Shown in pieces: positions 26,269 to 32,149 of a stretch of DNA of 44,213 nt. Each line of letters opens with the position of its first letter. The stretch's first letter is position 1. The position numbers were made by a program, and so were the translations under genes. This DNA is from Candidatus Moraniibacteriota bacterium (GTDB taxonomy: Bacteria > Patescibacteriota > Minisyncoccia > Moranbacterales > UBA2206): assembly GCA_003482885.1 (NCBI GenBank), contig DMXN01000032.1, positions 97,974 through 142,186 on the forward strand. The letters run 5' to 3'. The notes beneath the pieces are model-generated. The model searched no databases. It was given only the letters and a program-made list of their open reading frames with translations, and was not told where the DNA came from.

Positions 26269-26877
26269 TGCAGGAACGGGTTTATAACCCGTTCCACATA
26301 GTTTAGGGGCAATAAATGTCATCAACCGTAATTTCACATTGCGGATTGGCGCTAGACCAGCACCAGTATTCCGGTGTGATTACATAATTTTTCTTTACGG
26401 GATTATTATGAATATAGATTGCTTTTTGAAAATAGAATTCTTCGGTTTCTATTATTTTAGGCATATTGGTTTTTTCCCAAAATTCATATTTTCCATCGGC
26501 ATCTAAAAATAATTTTAGCACATTTGGTTCTGTATTCTCAATATTTTTGCGAAATTCTTTGGAAGTGAATTTCTTGAAATCGCAGACAAAGCCGGAAACA
26601 TCGGGAGAACCGATTATTAAATGAATGTGATTCAGCATAAAAACAAAAGCGTAGATTTTCAGTTGTTTTTCTCTTTGGCAATATTTCAGCGAGTTAGCCA
26701 AAATATTCCAGCGGTATTGGCGATCAAAAAAATAATAGAGATGCTTGACGCTGAAAGTGAGAAAATAGACACCTGAATTAAATTCTTTATGTATTTTTAC
26801 CGAGGGCATTGTGAAAGCTTTGAGAAATTAAAAAGTTATTAAACCATATGGAACGGGTTGTAAACCCGTTCCTGCGG
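26269..26877 (-). mobile_element. RAYT-type (REP-associated tyrosine transposase) unit: Y1 transposase gene bracketed by inverted hairpin repeats
   Basis: Left: tgcaGGAACGGGtttataaCCCGTTCCacata (hairpin 26273-26295). Right: catatGGAACGGGttgtaaaCCCGTTCCtgcgg (hairpin 26850-26872). The right copy is the reverse complement of the left over about 30 nt with 2-3 mismatches, the layout described for REP/RAYT units. Confidence 0.6.
26303..26809 (-). CDS. IS200/IS605-like Y1 (HUH) transposase, RAYT subgroup
   Basis: 168 aa. HUH motif MLNHIHLIIG and catalytic-Tyr region AIYIHNNPVKKNYV. The size and lack of a tnpB partner fit a RAYT. Confidence 0.8.
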   Translation of the reverse strand: MPSVKIHKEFNSGVYFLTFSVKHLYYFFDRQYRWNILANSLKYCQREKQLKIYAFVFMLNHIHLIIGSPDVSGFVCDFKKFTSKEFRKNIENTEPNVLKLFLDADGKYEFWEKTNMPKIIETEEFYFQKAIYIHNNPVKKNYVITPEYWCWSSANPQCEITVDDIYCP

Positions 26878-26954
26878 AGAGTAAGCATTATATCAAAAAA
26901 CTTCTTTTTATTCTCGCTGAGGCTTGATGAAGCTATCGAGTGTTTATACAAAAC

Positions 26955-27269
26955 TTAAGCGATTTTTATGCCGGTTTTTTTGATTTCATGCGCCATTGGA
27001 TTCCAATAATCGTTGAAGTCTTCCATGGTAAAACTATGCGGTTCAATTCTATTGTCTATGTCTTCTCTAGCTCTCCATAATTTCAAAATATTGGCATCGC
27101 GATTTTTTTTAATTTTTTCAGTAATAATCGCAACATCAATGTCGCTCCATTTTGTAGGTTTTCCGTGAGCATAGGAGCCAAATAAATAAATAGCAGAAAA
27201 GGGAATTTTTTGCGCTCTTAATTTTTTGGCATATTTTGCAACTATTTTTTTTGCTTCAATTCTAGACAT
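26955..27269 (-). CDS. minimal nucleotidyltransferase (MNT) domain protein, partner of the HEPN protein
   Basis: 104 aa. IYLFGSYAHGKPTKWSDIDVAII is the GSxxxG...DxD polymerase-beta-type NTase motif. It overlaps the HEPN gene by 28 nt. Confidence 0.75.
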   Translation of the reverse strand: MSRIEAKKIVAKYAKKLRAQKIPFSAIYLFGSYAHGKPTKWSDIDVAIITEKIKKNRDANILKLWRAREDIDNRIEPHSFTMEDFNDYWNPMAHEIKKTGIKIA

Positions 27270-27649
27270 AATTTTTTATAAACACTAATCGTTTTATCAA
27301 TATGATTTTTGGCGTATTCTTTTGTAATTTGTTTGTACAAACTCAATTTATAATCGGGATAACGAGCGCGAATATTAAATTCATTGGTTGTATAAAGAAA
27401 GTCTTTTTCTTCTTTTGAAATTTCCAGTTTTGCTATTTCTTGCAAACGGACAAGATCATGAATTCTTGGTGCTTGATCTTTTGTGTGCTTAACGACATGC
27501 GCTTTTAATATTTTTTCCAAAACAATATGGGCGAAAAAAAGAGAATCAGAATATCTTTTCGATTTAAAAAGTGCGTTCATTGTTACGAAATCATGCTCGG
27601 CCGTAGCCATCCAATAGTGAATAAGTTTATTTATGCTAATTTCTTTCAT
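27242..27649 (-). CDS. HEPN domain protein (toxin-type partner of MNT)
   Basis: 135 aa. AEHDFVTMNALFKSKRYSDSLFFAHIVLEKILKAHVV...RIHDLVRLQE...NIRARYPDY follows the HEPN pattern (A..D...A.......F...Q..EK.LKA......HDL..L.....RY). Confidence 0.7.
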   Translation of the reverse strand: MKEISINKLIHYWMATAEHDFVTMNALFKSKRYSDSLFFAHIVLEKILKAHVVKHTKDQAPRIHDLVRLQEIAKLEISKEEKDFLYTTNEFNIRARYPDYKLSLYKQITKEYAKNHIDKTISVYKKLCLELKQKK

Positions 27650-28158: not shown

Positions 28159-28428
28159 TTATCCTTTTAATTCAAGTTTTTTAATTAAAACTTTATAACT
28201 TTTTTCGTTAGTTTTTTTTAAATAATCGAGAAGCCGTTTTCTTTTGGAAACCATCTTGAGCAGTCCGCGACGGGAATGAAAATCCTTGGCGTTTTTCTTG
28301 AGATGGGTGGTTAATTTTTTGATTGTTTCGGTAAAAAGAGCGACTTGATATTCCGGCGATCCGGTATCTTTGTCATGTCTTTTGACTTCTTTTGTCACTT
28401 TTTCCTTTTGTTTGTTGCTAAGAGCCAT
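28159..28428 (-). CDS. rpsO: 30S ribosomal protein S15
   Basis: 89 aa. DTGSPEYQVALFTETIKKLTTHLKKNAKDFHSRRGLLKMVSKRKRLLDYLKK is the canonical S15 core. Confidence 0.95.
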   Translation of the reverse strand: MALSNKQKEKVTKEVKRHDKDTGSPEYQVALFTETIKKLTTHLKKNAKDFHSRRGLLKMVSKRKRLLDYLKKTNEKSYKVLIKKLELKG

Positions 28429-28550
28429 AAAACGATTGAGGCAAAACAGAAGTTGCGTTTTTATCCGTCAACTGCAGCTTGCTAATGATGAATAATTATA
28501 CTTAAAGACTATATTAAAATTGTGGTTTTGGCAAATTTTTTTTGGAAAAT

Positions 28551-28584
28551 AAAAAAGGACGAACTCGATTGAGTCTGTCCTTTT
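28551..28584. terminator. bidirectional intrinsic-terminator-like hairpin
   Basis: aaaaaa-GGACGAACTC-gatt-GAGTCTGTCC-tttt. On the minus strand the stem is followed by ttttttatttt. It would end a minus-strand transcript coming from about 29067, just upstream of the rpsO promoter region. Confidence 0.5.
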
Positions 28585-28618
28585 AGTTTGGTTTCCTGAA
28601 ACATTTGCCAAGCTCTGC

Positions 28619-28650
28619 TTGGCAGACCATCAATTTGGCAGACCATCAAT
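28619..28650. repeat. perfect 16-nt tandem duplication (ttggcagaccatcaat x2)
   Basis: Units at 28619-28634 and 28635-28650, inside the candidate ncRNA. The second unit pairs with the downstream gatggtc. Confidence 0.85.
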
Positions 28651-28997
28651 AGGGATGGTCAATATGCTCATTTTCTAGCCGAGACAGCCGATCCGGGATT
28701 CACGCGTTTACCAACGGATTCGCGACCAAGTTTTTTAAGGAATTTGGCGAAAACCTTTTTTCCTACTTATGCTCACGCATGAGTAGTTTTGTCGGGACAG
28801 TATCTTTTTCGAATACCGCCCCGACATAAGATGTGTGAGAATATTCCTTTGAACAGAATATTCTTACAGTGTAGGTGTAAAGTTGCCTCCCCCTCACTCT
28901 TCGGGAAGGCTCTATCTCTGTGACATGCGCAGACGGATCTGCGCCGCACAGGTGACACTCCCCTATCTGACAACAACAGGGGAACTCGCTTATCTTT

Positions 28998-29226
28998 CCA
29001 TCCTCATAACGCGAATACCGTTAGGCTAACTTTGGCTTAATACAGGCGTAATTAGCATCTCTGTTTCATCTAAAATTATGTAAAAACTAGTTTATTTTTC
29101 AAAAACACCCCTATATGAAGCCAATATTAAACAAATCGAGGTTTAAAACAATTAATTAATGTATCAGATTTTGGCTTATATAAAGCATATCCAGCCTAAC
29201 GGTATTCGCGTTCATAAACAGGATGG
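28998..29226. repeat. long-range inverted repeat (20-bp perfect core + 7-bp extension) flanking a 165-nt AT-rich segment
   Basis: aacgcgaataccgttaggct (29008-29027) is the exact reverse complement of agcctaacggtattcgcgtt (29193-29212). ccatcct (28998-29004) pairs with aggatgg (29220-29226). A third, partial copy, aacggattcgcg, at 28713-28724 can also pair with the 29008-29020 arm. Confidence 0.85.
29075..29102 (-). promoter_or_regulatory. sigma70-like promoter facing the candidate ncRNA
   Basis: The minus strand reads TTGAAA-(16 nt: aataaactagttttta)-CATAAT, located inside the IR-flanked AT-rich segment. The predicted start is near 29067. Confidence 0.35.
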
Positions 29227-29239
29227 AAATCATAGGTTT

Positions 29240-29425
29240 TCATATTTTCCTCCTTTTTTTGCCCTTACCTTTCGGCTCGGGCGAGTTGTCATCCTTTGCT
29301 TTGACAGCTGCAATTGTCAAAGCGAGGAGGATGGTTATGAATAATACAACCATGACGAGTGTCATGGGTTCTTTTATTGGGTTTGCCAGGAAGTCCTGCA
29401 AAGCCCTTAACTCAAGATAGGTCAT
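29240..29425 (-). CDS. 61-aa single-pass membrane mini-protein with basic C-terminus
   Basis: MTYLELRALQDFLANPIKEPMTLVMVVLFITILLALTIAAVKAKDDNSPEPKGKGKKRRKI. A perfect Shine-Dalgarno GAGAGGAGG lies 5 nt before the ATG, which is rare in this window. Its GC-richer codon usage differs from its neighbours. The stop lies 13 nt before the right arm of the 20-bp inverted repeat. Confidence 0.45.
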   Translation of the reverse strand: MTYLELRALQDFLANPIKEPMTLVMVVLFITILLALTIAAVKAKDDNSPEPKGKGKKRRKI

Positions 29426-29631
29426 TCTTACCTCCTCTCATCTCCGCAATTCAAAATTCAAATCCTCACCCCGTCGAAACAGGATTGTTTTCTTTTTAAG
29501 CGCCGGTATATTTGCGCGCCGGAAAACAATATGATGAGTTTTGATTTTGAATCGCTTCGGCGATTTTTGTTGGAGTTTAATCTTTCACCGCAAGAGAGAC
29601 CGCCTCTCTTTTTCGGCAATATTTTTTTCAC

Positions 29632-29686
29632 TTCGCCATTTGAAAACACAAAACAAATAAATTTGCTTATGGCTTCAAATGGCGAA
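29632..29686. repeat. 13-bp perfect inverted repeat (ttcgccatttgaa / ttcaaatggcgaa) with a 29-nt loop
   Basis: Arms at 29632-29644 and 29674-29686, in the ORF-poor region upstream of pcrA. Confidence 0.8.
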
Positions 29687-29953
29687 ATGAAAGCTTAAGT
29701 TGTCAAAGTTCTGAAATTTATATTACCGTTTGTTATGATATTTTTTAGGTTTCATCATAACACTGCACGATAGCATTTTTTAGAAAACTTGTCAAACGAA
29801 ATTTTGTAAAATGCTTTAATAAAGCCGTTTTTGGACTTTAAGATTTTGTGGAATTGTTGAAAATGCCCTGCATAAGCCAAATTGTTGAAAAATCAATATG
29901 GCGGATAAAAATAAAAAAAGTTTAAATTTATTTATCCTGAAACTTTTCTTTTA

Positions 29954-29962
29954 TGCTACAAT
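29954..29962 (+). promoter_or_regulatory. extended -10 (TGCTACAAT) 6 nt upstream of the pcrA ATG
   Basis: ttaTGCTACAATgattctATG. No SD is present. The geometry fits a leaderless mRNA. Confidence 0.4.
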
Positions 29963-29968
29963 GATTCT

Positions 29969-32149
29969 ATGTCCAATATCTTGGAAAACTTAAATTCTTC
30001 TCAGCGGGAGGCGGTGGAAACTACCGAAGGGGCGGTTTTGGTGATTGCGGGAGCGGGATCGGGGAAAACGCGGGCGCTTACATATCGTACGGTTTATTTG
30101 ATTTGCGAGAAAAATATTCCTCCGAGAAATATTTTAGCTGTAACTTTTACCAATAAAGCCGCGGCGGAAATGAAAGAACGCATAGCGGGATTATTAGCCG
30201 ATTCGAATCTACGAATGGAATGCGAATCTACGAATAGTAAAAAATACGGAATGCCTATGGTGGGAACCTTTCATTCGATTTGCGCGAGAATTTTACGATC
30301 GGAAATCAAAAAGTTAGATTTTAGCAGTAATTTTAACATTTTTGACGCGCAGGATCAGCAAAGTTTAATTAAAAAAACCATGAAAGAATTAAATATTGAC
30401 ACGACGCAATTTCGTCCGCAAAGTATTTTGGGGACTATTTCCAAAGCGAAAAATGAATTGATTGACGCGCAAGCGTTTCAAAAGTCCGCTGGCGGATATT
30501 GGGAAGATATTGCGGCAAAGGTTTATGTTAATTATCAAGAAAGGTTGAAAAAAAACAACGCGTTGGATTTTGATGATATTTTAATGTTTCTTGTGGAAAT
30601 TTTTCGCAAATTTCCGGAAGTTTTGGAAAAATATCAAAATATTTTCCGCTATATTATGGTGGACGAATATCAAGACACCAACCACGCGCAATATACATTG
30701 ATTAAAATGCTGGCGGACAAACATAAAAACATTTGCGTTGTGGGTGACGATTGGCAAGGGATTTATTCTTGGCGGGGCGCCAATATTCAAAATATTTTAG
30801 ATTTTGAAAAAGATTATCCTTCCGCCAAGGTGGTGAAATTGGAACAAAATTACCGATCTTCCCAGCAAATTTTGGATGCCGCTTACGGCGTGATTTCCAA
30901 AAATGTCAATCGCAATGATAAAAAAATTTGGACGGAAAATAAAGCCGGACACTTGCTGGTTTCTTATGAAGCGGAAAATGAAGGCGATGAAGCGCGTTTC
31001 ATAGTTTCGGAAGTAATATCTTTGTGCAACAGAGGCGTGAAATTAAATAATATTGTCGTATTGTATCGGACAAACGCGCAATCGAGAATTATCGAGGAAT
31101 CGATGCTTGCCGATTCGATTCCCTATCGCATTATTGGCGGGTTAAAATTTTACCAGCGCAAAGAAATCAAAGATATTATCGCTTATTTGCGATTGATTGA
31201 AAATTTTAATGACGAAATTTCCTTGGAAAGAATTATAAATGAACCGAAACGCGGGATTGGCGAGAAAACTGTGGAGAAATGGACGGCTTTTGCTAAAAGA
31301 AATAGTTTAGATTTAATAATAGCGGGGCTTGAAATTTTAGATGACAAAATTATTAAAACTAAGGCAGAAAATATTGCTAGATTTTGCGAGTTCATTAAAA
31401 GAATGCGGGAAATAAAAAATAACTTATCTTTGGCGGATTTTATTCAGAAAGTTTTTTTGGAAAGCGGATATGAAAAACAGTTATTGGATGGAACCGATGA
31501 AGGGCAAATGCGTTATGAAAACGCGCGGGAATTATTAACTGTTGCGAAGAAATATGATGGGTATGAAAATGGCGAGGGTTTAAGTTTGTTTTTGGAAGAA
31601 GTGGCGCTGGTGGCGGATACGGACAATATTGATCAATCCAGCGAAGCGGTGCATTTGATGACGCTTCACAGCGCCAAAGGTTTGGAATTTCAGTTTGTTT
31701 TTATCGCCGGATTGGAAGAAGGAATTTTGCCGCATTCGCGCAGTTTGCTTAGCGAGCCGGAAATGGAAGAAGAACGGCGATTGATGTATGTGGGAATCAC
31801 GCGCGCCAAACAAAAAGTTTATTTATTATTCACCAAAATGCGCTCTATTTTCGGCTCCACGCAAATCAACGCGCCATCAAGATTTTTAGATGACATCCCA
31901 GAAGAATTAATCGAAAGCGCCGAACTTTCTGGGGTGAATATAAAAGCCAATGAATTTATAGCCGGGCGCAAGAAAACTGTTTTGACTGAAAATAAAGAAA
32001 CTTTCAAGGGCGGAGAAAAAATCGTTCATGAAAAATTCGGCAAAGGGCTGGTAATCGCATCCCAAGGCGACATTATTACCGTTGCTTTCCAATCAGTCGG
32101 ATTGAAAAAGCTTTCCAGCCAAGTCGCGCCGATTAAAAGAGTAGGATAA
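29969..32149 (+). CDS. pcrA: ATP-dependent DNA helicase PcrA/UvrD (SF1), with a short in-frame repeat insertion
   Basis: 726 aa. Motif I VIAGAGSGKT, Ia AVTFTNKAAAEMKER, II MVDEYQDTN, III VVGDDWQGIYSWRGA, V/VI LMTLHSAKGLEFQFVFI and YVGITRAK. Insert DSNLRMECESTNSKK lies between motifs Ia and Ib. Confidence 0.9.
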   Translation: MSNILENLNSSQREAVETTEGAVLVIAGAGSGKTRALTYRTVYLICEKNIPPRNILAVTFTNKAAAEMKERIAGLLADSNLRMECESTNSKKYGMPMVGTFHSICARILRSEIKKLDFSSNFNIFDAQDQQSLIKKTMKELNIDTTQFRPQSILGTISKAKNELIDAQAFQKSAGGYWEDIAAKVYVNYQERLKKNNALDFDDILMFLVEIFRKFPEVLEKYQNIFRYIMVDEYQDTNHAQYTLIKMLADKHKNICVVGDDWQGIYSWRGANIQNILDFEKDYPSAKVVKLEQNYRSSQQILDAAYGVISKNVNRNDKKIWTENKAGHLLVSYEAENEGDEARFIVSEVISLCNRGVKLNNIVVLYRTNAQSRIIEESMLADSIPYRIIGGLKFYQRKEIKDIIAYLRLIENFNDEISLERIINEPKRGIGEKTVEKWTAFAKRNSLDLIIAGLEILDDKIIKTKAENIARFCEFIKRMREIKNNLSLADFIQKVFLESGYEKQLLDGTDEGQMRYENARELLTVAKKYDGYENGEGLSLFLEEVALVADTDNIDQSSEAVHLMTLHSAKGLEFQFVFIAGLEEGILPHSRSLLSEPEMEEERRLMYVGITRAKQKVYLLFTKMRSIFGSTQINAPSRFLDDIPEELIESAELSGVNIKANEFIAGRKKTVLTENKETFKGGEKIVHEKFGKGLVIASQGDIITVAFQSVGLKKLSSQVAPIKRVG
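30200..30236. repeat. tacgaat-type modules in frame inside pcrA
   Basis: gattcgaatctacgaatggaatgcgaatctacgaata, i.e. two gaatctacgaat units. Translates to DSNLRMECESTN. Confidence 0.75.

Follow-up and report, generated by a model that had tools for sequence, protein, structure and literature searches.

A GC-rich, hairpin-dense segment beside rpsO in a Candidatus Moraniibacteriota genome: possible tail of a small-gene cassette split by a MITE and carrying a conserved 71-nt motif

What is the GC-rich, hairpin-dense segment that lies upstream of rpsO in the genome of a Candidatus Moraniibacteriota bacterium (GenBank assembly GCA_003482885.1)? The window analyzed here is a stretch of 44,213 nt (contig DMXN01000032.1, positions 97,974 to 142,186, forward strand; all positions below are those of the window), and the segment, at 28550-29067, lies inside the 1.5-kb interval between rpsO and pcrA. 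An initial annotation made from the sequence had proposed it as a novel structured RNA of about 0.5 kb, free of open reading frames (ORFs), with its own promoter and terminator. The reading that we prefer, and to which we give about an even chance, is that the segment is the tail of a strain-specific, hairpin-rich small-gene cassette that has been split by a miniature inverted-repeat transposable element (MITE), the parts belonging to one minus-strand accessory unit. The MITE insertion is recent and polymorphic, and near the 3' end of the unit lies a 71-nt motif that, from the comparisons made here, is new, absent from Rfam and narrowly distributed.

Results

A recent and polymorphic MITE insertion at the right end of the segment

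The MITE (Table 1) is non-coding, its terminal repeats of 19-20 nt are 100% complementary, and it is present in two 100% identical copies in this genome (G000; 823 kb in 37 contigs, 96% complete), positions 29007-29212 recurring at the start of contig C9. The C9 copy (C9:128-330, locus L002) is flanked by the target duplication TAATA and splits an XRE-type helix-turn-helix ORF, which is restored (...KLARLADIANNTIIKIEAGKNQNPTLNTLNKIAKALGISVDDLIG*) when the copy and one TAATA are removed. Both known copies interrupt small genes. In a blastn search of the unit against the whole genome just these two copies were found, and no autonomous insertion sequence (IS) with matching terminal repeats; among 70 genomes of the family there was no further copy and no related autonomous IS.

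The empty site was recovered from contigs of the same groundwater study, which join 29003 to 29212 and skip 208 nt (203 + 5). In DNA run X1 the empty-site contig occurs alongside the MITE-filled form, and in run X2 the MITE-bearing form is the sole form among those listed. Runs X3 and X4, from one sample, are labeled metatranscriptomic and were judged to be probably DNA; they contain an 809-nt empty-site contig that carries 29593-29212 plus 29003-28577 in one piece. It is the only X3/X4 contig over 26000-32000, where the flanking genes are without cover, and it is not counted as evidence of transcription. The empty-site contigs establish that two small reading frames, ORF1 and ORF2, and the region 3' of them form one continuous sequence without the MITE, and since the two MITE copies are identical, the insertion is recent.

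The insertion alters much of what had been claimed for the segment, the right end of which falls within the MITE. The promoter-like sequence TTGAAA-16-CATAAT that had been assigned to it does exist, at 29102-29075 on the minus strand, but it lies inside the polymorphic MITE and is not native to the locus; directly upstream of the segment there is no other good promoter-like site. A long-range pairing had also been described, but it joins the MITE terminal repeat to the conserved 71-nt motif; because one arm is the MITE terminal repeat, the pairing cannot belong to the original unit. A 20-nt perfect inverted repeat is present as well. An inverton, or a switch between alternative pairings, at this repeat was rejected, since the 5-bp duplications, the additional copy on C9 and the empty-site contigs argue for a MITE. 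The absence of ORFs, finally, is true of the MITE-bearing allele, the assembled one, in which the longest ORF between 28430 and 29968 is at most 67 aa, but not of the MITE-free allele.

Two candidate coupled genes in the MITE-free allele

In the MITE-free allele a 90-codon minus-strand frame, ORF2, spans the GC-rich core and ends with a TAG at 28765-28763. Its codon 10/11 is where the MITE has inserted, and the frame of the assembled allele ends after 15 codons, inside the MITE repeat. ORF2 would start at the stop codon of ORF1, whose hydrophobic stretch covers residues 22-41 and whose Shine-Dalgarno region is paired in the predicted fold. The predicted ORF2 product is Cys-rich. By a rough estimate from base composition, the chance that a given frame remains open over 90 codons is less than 1%. 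Under a codon model for which 402 long ORFs of this genome served as the training set, real genes score a mean of 0.30 per codon, with a 5th percentile of 0.087, and the 95th percentile of off-frames is -0.31. ORF1 scores 0.089, at the 5th percentile of real genes, its other frames scoring -0.19 to -1.4, and the ORF2 score of -0.064 exceeds those of its five other frames. Both values are intermediate, which would not be surprising for foreign genes with a GC content of 0.44-0.46.

Several observations weigh against coding. The ORF2 codon score is below the 5th percentile of real genes, and its protein-language-model recognition score is within the range of shuffled sequences. No credible homolog of ORF1 or ORF2 was found among 5.8 billion clusters in a shared-word search, and a HMMER search of ORF2 against 1.84 billion representatives gave a single match, to a translated tandem repeat. 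In Pfam, ORF1 has only a sub-threshold match to DUF4006 and ORF2 has none. A 109-codon frame is also open on the opposite strand of the MITE-free allele, so long open frames arise fairly easily in this palindrome-rich DNA, and the last eight codons of ORF2 together with its stop form a perfect hairpin, CUACUCAUGCGUGAGCAUAAGUAG. Taking both sides together, we lean, by a little, towards ORF2 being a real gene. A pseudogene of a known protein was rejected in view of the lack of a Pfam match and of k-mer homologs, the spurious HMMER match and low Atlas scores.

A conserved 71-nt motif near the 3' end of the unit

The motif contains an invariant loop of 19 nt, U[U/C]GGUAAACGCGUGAAUCC, which is closed by the 5-bp stem P1 and followed by the 3-bp stem P3. 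Matches occur in four genomes of the same genus, at other chromosomal loci that are not linked to rpsO, contrary to the adjacency that the initial annotation had raised as a possibility, and in three metagenome contigs; the database genomes that carry the motif are exclusively metagenome-assembled genomes (MAGs) of Candidatus Moraniibacteriota or unclassified bacteria. Alignment A1 comprises eight motif sequences from five independent contexts, several of them from close relatives, with 94.8% of cells paired. P1 shows compensatory double changes in three of its five pairs (AGCAG/CUGCU, AGUAG/CUACU, AGUCG/CGACU, AUCCG/CGGAU), and P3 shows one compensatory change, in the window's own copy. The covariation score is 0.348, compared with 0.135 +/- 0.043 in shuffles, of which 0 of 500 reach it, and it is at most 0.036 when the partners are slid by 1-3 columns. 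One U-G pair is compatible only with the minus-sense strand, and there are stops in all three forward frames of the motif. RNAalifold favors another, non-covarying pairing, and the covariation, coming from few related sequences, is suggestive. A CGCG/CGCG pseudoknot is possible; its pairing bases are invariant.

A covariance model of the motif, R1, detects exactly one copy in 5 of the 14 genomes of the genus. Among 57 other genomes of the family it gives only one uncertain intergenic match, at L061:1501-1567 in G090, which belongs to another genus; there, AT-rich intergenic sequence contains GUAAgCGuGUGAAUCCC within a UUAG/CUAA stem (25 bits), and this sequence may be distantly related to the motif or may match it by chance. 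A weak R1 match in G025 is spurious, lying inside a glycosyltransferase-like coding region. A phage origin was rejected: both motif patterns are without a true match in viral contigs, where all matches are to the seed word only. A literature search turned up no account of an element of this kind from Patescibacteria. Outside the motif, BLAST of 28545-29006 and 29212-29945 against 60 relatives returned nothing except the short 71-nt piece, and for 390 of the roughly 460 nt a counterpart is absent from all the genomes and metagenomes that were searched. Conservation and covariation, which had been proposed as checks on the segment as a whole, are found in the 71-nt motif, for P1 and one P3 pair, but not in those remaining 390 nt or so.

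In all five contexts a small ORF, different each time, precedes the motif on the same strand and ends 8-180 nt before it, and in all of them a hairpin of variable sequence comes 4-8 nt after the motif, followed by a terminator. The stop of ORF2, 32 nt before the motif, fits this pattern, and that of ORF1 would be about 300 nt off. In the window, the terminator-like hairpin proper occupies 28553-28584, before a minus-strand U-tract, and so the hairpin and U-tract that had been described as closing the segment are confirmed, as is the perfect 16-nt tandem duplication; a simple terminator scan did not list the hairpin. Judged by their position, the motif and its trailing hairpins would act on the RNA level, as a 3'-end module. 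A riboswitch or attenuator was rejected because nothing relates the downstream genes to one another: they are rpsO, which has its own promoter, a gene for a methyltransferase-domain protein, and unknown ORFs; by eye no anti-terminator pairing was seen for the motif, no formal search having been made.

One of the metagenome contigs, L047, has at 250-700 a GC-rich stretch of about 300 nt without an Rfam match and with a fold z-score of only -2.1. It precedes a 69-aa, weakly ThiS-like ORF (Pfam E 0.0017, below threshold) that is itself upstream of the motif.

Folding and coding in the unit and in related cassettes

The segment had been described as GC-rich and hairpin-dense, and it is both. Its GC content is 0.43-0.485 over 28600-29099, against 0.26-0.33 in the AT-rich flanks and 0.372 in the genome, and all the local helices named in the initial annotation appear in the minimum-free-energy fold. 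The minus-strand RNA of 28550-29105 folds at -193 kcal/mol, compared with -143 +/- 6.3 for dinucleotide shuffles (z -7.9), and the plus-strand value is nearly equal (z -7.6). In 60 random 240-nt windows of this genome's long genes z is -0.38 +/- 1.39, with a minimum of -3.8. The ORF2 part (-7.1), ORF1 (-5.3) and the upstream region at 29594-29800 (-6.1) are beyond this minimum; the 3' region has z -3.6 and the ORF1 leader, at 29426-29593, -2.5.

The segment belongs to no known RNA family that was searched for. With all 4227 Rfam models, among them those for 6S RNA, group I and group II introns and riboswitches, 28400-29970 gave no match at gathering scores, and at E<=10 only chance microRNA-type hairpin matches far below threshold; seven related loci are also without an Rfam match. 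ARAGORN reports only three tRNAs in the window. A divergent housekeeping RNA was rejected, RNase P RNA being located on contig C7 and tmRNA on C27. The small signal recognition particle (SRP) RNA model finds nothing in the whole genome, at its 96% completeness, and no SRP model matches 28400-29970 at E<=10. A pile-up of REP-like repeats was likewise rejected, the hairpins of the unit being unique in the genome.

Does folding of this strength speak against a coding function? Small ORFs of relatives beside the motif, or beside a shared 5' leader, have z-scores of -4.3, -4.8, -8.5, -8.9 and -9.2, and at L042 a largely non-coding stretch before the motif reaches -10, after a frame of only about 40 codons. 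The 182-aa ORF of L039 (6746-7291, minus strand; z -9.2) is, as judged by comparison with its homolog, clearly a real protein gene: L104:879-1418, on an unrelated metagenome contig without motif or leader, encodes a full-length homolog with 59% identity, and this gene is also hairpin-dense (z -5.4). The two genes have 61% nucleotide identity, and their alifold energy is -87 kcal/mol, compared with -55 +/- 6 for codon-shuffled sequences, with 18 compensatory pairs, which suggests that RNA or single-stranded DNA structure has been selected within the coding sequence. Perfect in-frame palindromes such as ATGGAGGAAGAATATTCCTCCATG are found in this conserved gene of about 180 aa. Because the real L039 protein gene is equally hairpin-dense, strong folding is no argument against coding here. 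Cassettes of this kind in the genus have extreme hairpin density in common, in their coding parts as well, and the folding seems to have been superimposed, by selection or by whatever generates it, on coding sequence.

Six of the 14 genus genomes contain a conserved leader, CGCTCGGAnnCGAAGCGnnAGTCGGGCAGGAGG..ATG, some 45 nt long, in front of small ORFs that are not homologous; one of the six has it twice, and several of these loci are without the 71-nt 3' motif. The shared leader sequence CGCTCGGAnnCGAAGCGnnAGTCGGG is not found in G000 at up to 3 mismatches. The hairpin at 29626-29692 resembles those of the related cassettes by eye only, and homology is not claimed.

A variable spacer between rpsO and pcrA

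The long interval between rpsO and pcrA had been called anomalous for a compact genome, a view that is not borne out, the spacer being variable across the genus. The rpsO gene is present in all 13 other genomes of the genus, its 89-aa product being 88-92% identical to the counterparts, and the upstream region of rpsO aligns with all of them up to ...GTTTTGGCAA; the conserved -10 region of pcrA begins near 29950. In 7 of the 13, pcrA is divergent and 160-340 bp past rpsO, in 5 another gene of 198-360 aa stands between the two, and in one a contig end truncates the locus. By these alignments, all of the 1.4 kb is a strain-specific insert. The promoter-like site of Table 1 at 29767-29795 is the best one outside the MITE that points into the unit, and the plus-strand promoter-like sites are only weak.

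A different GC-rich insert, of about 230 bp, is found in the rpsO-pcrA spacer of genome G010 (L032, ~1870-2090), with imperfect terminal inverted repeats TGTTATCCTGAGCGAAGTC... / ...GCGTTACGCTCAGAATGACA, and small mobile DNA seems to insert preferentially in this spacer. Elsewhere in the window, 26303-27649 holds the 168-aa ORF of an IS200/RAYT-like Y1 transposase and an overlapping nucleotidyltransferase/HEPN-type pair, located between pnp and an NYN-domain gene, a position at which relatives have other small membrane-protein genes instead.

Table 1. Features in and around the accessory unit (window positions unless a locus is named)
Feature	Positions	Strand	Remarks
rpsO (ribosomal protein S15)	28159..28428	-	Downstream neighbor, outside the element; 89-aa ORF
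Conserved rpsO leader and promoter region	28429..28536	-	Upper edge is the lower boundary of the strain-specific insert
Strain-specific variable spacer, 1.4 kb	28537..29945		Between the conserved rpsO and pcrA promoter regions
Intrinsic-terminator-like hairpin + UUUUUUAUUUU	28545..28584	-	Closes the unit on its 3' side; stem of 10 bp with a single mismatch
Hairpin UGCCAAGC-AGA-GCUUGGCA	28606..28624	-	Analogs GGGCAAG...CUUGCCC in L050 and L053
Perfect 16-nt tandem duplication	28619..28650		TTGGCAGACCATCAAT x2
Hairpin directly after the motif	28641..28660	-	Position kept among homologs, sequence varies
Conserved 71-nt motif	28661..28731	-	Matches elsewhere by sequence; 5-bp stem P1 covaries
GC-rich, hairpin-dense core	28763..29003	-	ORF2 codons 11-90 and stop in the MITE-free allele
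Target-site duplication TCATA	left 29004..29008, right 29212..29216		Flanks the MITE
MITE, 203 bp	29009..29211		19-nt perfect terminal inverted repeats ACGCGAATACCGTTAGGCT
Candidate ORF2 start	29212..29243	-	ATG at 29243-29241 overlaps the ORF1 TGA (ATGA); AGGAGG 6 nt upstream
ORF1, 61 aa	29240..29425	-	One predicted transmembrane helix, Lys/Arg-rich tail, Shine-Dalgarno GAGAGGAGG
Structured 5' leader of ORF1	29426..29593	-	Reaches the upper end of the 809-nt contig
26-bp imperfect hairpin	29626..29692		Upstream of the ORF1 leader
Promoter-like site TTGACA-17-TATCGT with upstream TG	29767..29795	-	10/12; consensus match only
pcrA/UvrD-type helicase	29969..32149	+	Divergent neighbor, outside the element
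Shared leader loci of relatives	L038:2263-2300, L039, L042, L048, L065, L068, L069

Discussion

A discrete non-coding RNA gene of about 0.5 kb with its own promoter is not supported by the evidence: the promoter belongs to the MITE, the segment is continuous with the 61-aa ORF, and 390 of its approximately 460 nt are unconserved. In the cassette reading, the segment would be the 3' two-thirds of a minus-strand unit of about 1.0-1.2 kb that extends from approximately 29.6-29.8 kb to the terminator at 28545-28584. The intact order would be a structured leader, ORF1, a 61-aa protein of membrane type, ORF2 of 90 aa, a spacer of about 32 nt, the motif, two hairpins and the terminator, with ORF2 coupled to ORF1 through the ATGA overlap and its own AGGAGG. 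Insertion of the MITE at ORF2 codon 10/11 would have made the stretch look gene-free and at the same time supplied the apparent promoter, and the hairpin structure would overlie the coding sequence rather than replace it. The unit would be one transcript from which both ORFs are translated, and the motif may bind a factor at, or stabilize, the 3' end of the mRNA, or it may yield a 3'-derived small RNA.

Could the whole MITE-free unit of about 1 kb instead be a non-coding, multi-hairpin RNA, in which the ORFs are chance frames and the motif is the functional core? This possibility, which is close to the original idea except that the RNA would be longer and independent of the MITE promoter, is in our view unlikely, while being the alternative that survives best. 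It would sit well with the folding of ORF2, ORF1 and the upstream region beyond the coding controls, the lack of protein homologs for either frame, the low codon and language-model scores of ORF2, the antisense 109-codon frame as an example of long frames arising by chance, and the hairpin-rich stretch of L042, which precedes the motif and follows only a short frame. The structural argument does not discriminate, however, since the conserved L039 protein gene is just as hairpin-dense, and neither sequence nor structure is conserved outside the 71 nt. A chance origin of the frames would also leave to coincidence two strong, correctly spaced Shine-Dalgarno sequences, an ATGA overlap typical of coupled genes, and sense frames that are the best of six for both ORF1 and ORF2.

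It is less probable still that the locus is functionless foreign DNA, the decaying remnant of a horizontally acquired cassette that is now being broken up by the MITE. Strain specificity, foreign GC content, orphan ORFs and the fact that one ORF is already interrupted are all in keeping with decay, as is the MITE-bearing state of the assembled allele, the sole form listed in X2. Yet the MITE-free allele has kept both frames, their Shine-Dalgarno sequences and the terminator, the motif has kept its invariant loop and shows compensatory changes relative to its homologs, and the identity of the MITE copies makes the insertion a recent one.

The hairpins might, thirdly, act at the DNA level: the unit would be, or would descend from, a mobile element of HUH/Y1-transposase or rolling-circle type with a single-stranded DNA stage, and the motif would serve as the hairpin that is recognized or nicked. 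Nick sites of Rep proteins and relaxases classically take the form of a covarying stem that encloses an invariant loop. The motif has this form; it moreover occurs at different loci in different genomes beside non-homologous cargo, is the point at which metagenome contigs L047 and L050 break, lies 2 kb from a Y1 transposase gene, and is part of a unit whose fold z-scores are nearly equal on both strands. We nevertheless consider this very improbable: the motif is single-copy in each genome and is set about 125 nt inside the boundary of the insert at 28537, genes for a Rep protein, relaxase or transposase do not regularly accompany it, each hairpin has a sequence of its own and none belongs to a repeat family, and the motif invariably shares the orientation of the ORF upstream and has a U-tract terminator behind it, as one would expect of an RNA element.

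On a broader and frankly speculative view, which we regard as doubtful, the genus would possess a class of GC-rich accessory cassettes with mRNAs that are hairpin-saturated even in their coding parts (z -4 to -10) and with a shared 3' motif, a stem-loop or pseudoknot. Selection on the RNA would favor the saturation, which might, for instance, shield transcripts of mobile elements from the many single-strand-specific RNases of the host, such as those of the HEPN and NYN genes next door, and the motif would be the binding site of a dedicated factor.

Large bacterial RNAs whose function is unknown are few, and a novel non-coding RNA gene of 0.5 kb would have been notable among them. On the evidence, the finding comes down to more ordinary things: a recent MITE that hides a small operon, a variable spacer with an orphan accessory cassette in it, and a short conserved motif whose covariation is real but limited. 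That bona fide coding sequences of such cassettes fold as strongly as ribozymes or rRNA fragments calls for caution in screens of candidate phyla radiation (CPR) genomes that call non-coding RNAs from GC content and folding z-scores, and if the folding is selected, it bears on RNA metabolism in these organisms.

How does the locus compare with known systems? The large RNAs of Rfam (RNase P RNA, tmRNA, SRP RNA, OLE, GOLLD, ROOL, HEARO and group II introns) are similarly GC-rich, strongly folding and hundreds of nucleotides long, but none of the models matches the segment, even at E<=10. The inserted element is like the MITEs that are found in bacterial genes and intergenic hairpins in its perfect terminal repeats, 5-bp target duplication, lack of an ORF and empty site, and it also carries an outward-facing promoter-like site; unlike them, it has neither an autonomous parent IS nor further copies in the 70 family genomes. 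The small, single-transmembrane, basic-tailed ORF1, its strongly folded predicted mRNA and the accessory, strain-specific locus are reminiscent of type I toxin-antitoxin systems such as hok/sok and txpA/ratA, a likeness read from sequence alone, whereas the absence of similarity to known families, the second, coupled ORF and the length of about 1 kb, compared with 0.2-0.4 kb, set the unit apart. RNAIII of Staphylococcus aureus, a multi-hairpin RNA of 0.5-1 kb with a small ORF, offers an analogy only, the hairpins here not being conserved. Finally, the motif could be compared with the 3' untranslated region (3'UTR) modules and 3'UTR-derived small RNAs of enterobacteria, such as CpxQ and SroC, in which a structured element likewise lies between a stop codon and an intrinsic terminator; the difference is that here it is the element that stays constant, next to upstream genes that are not homologous.

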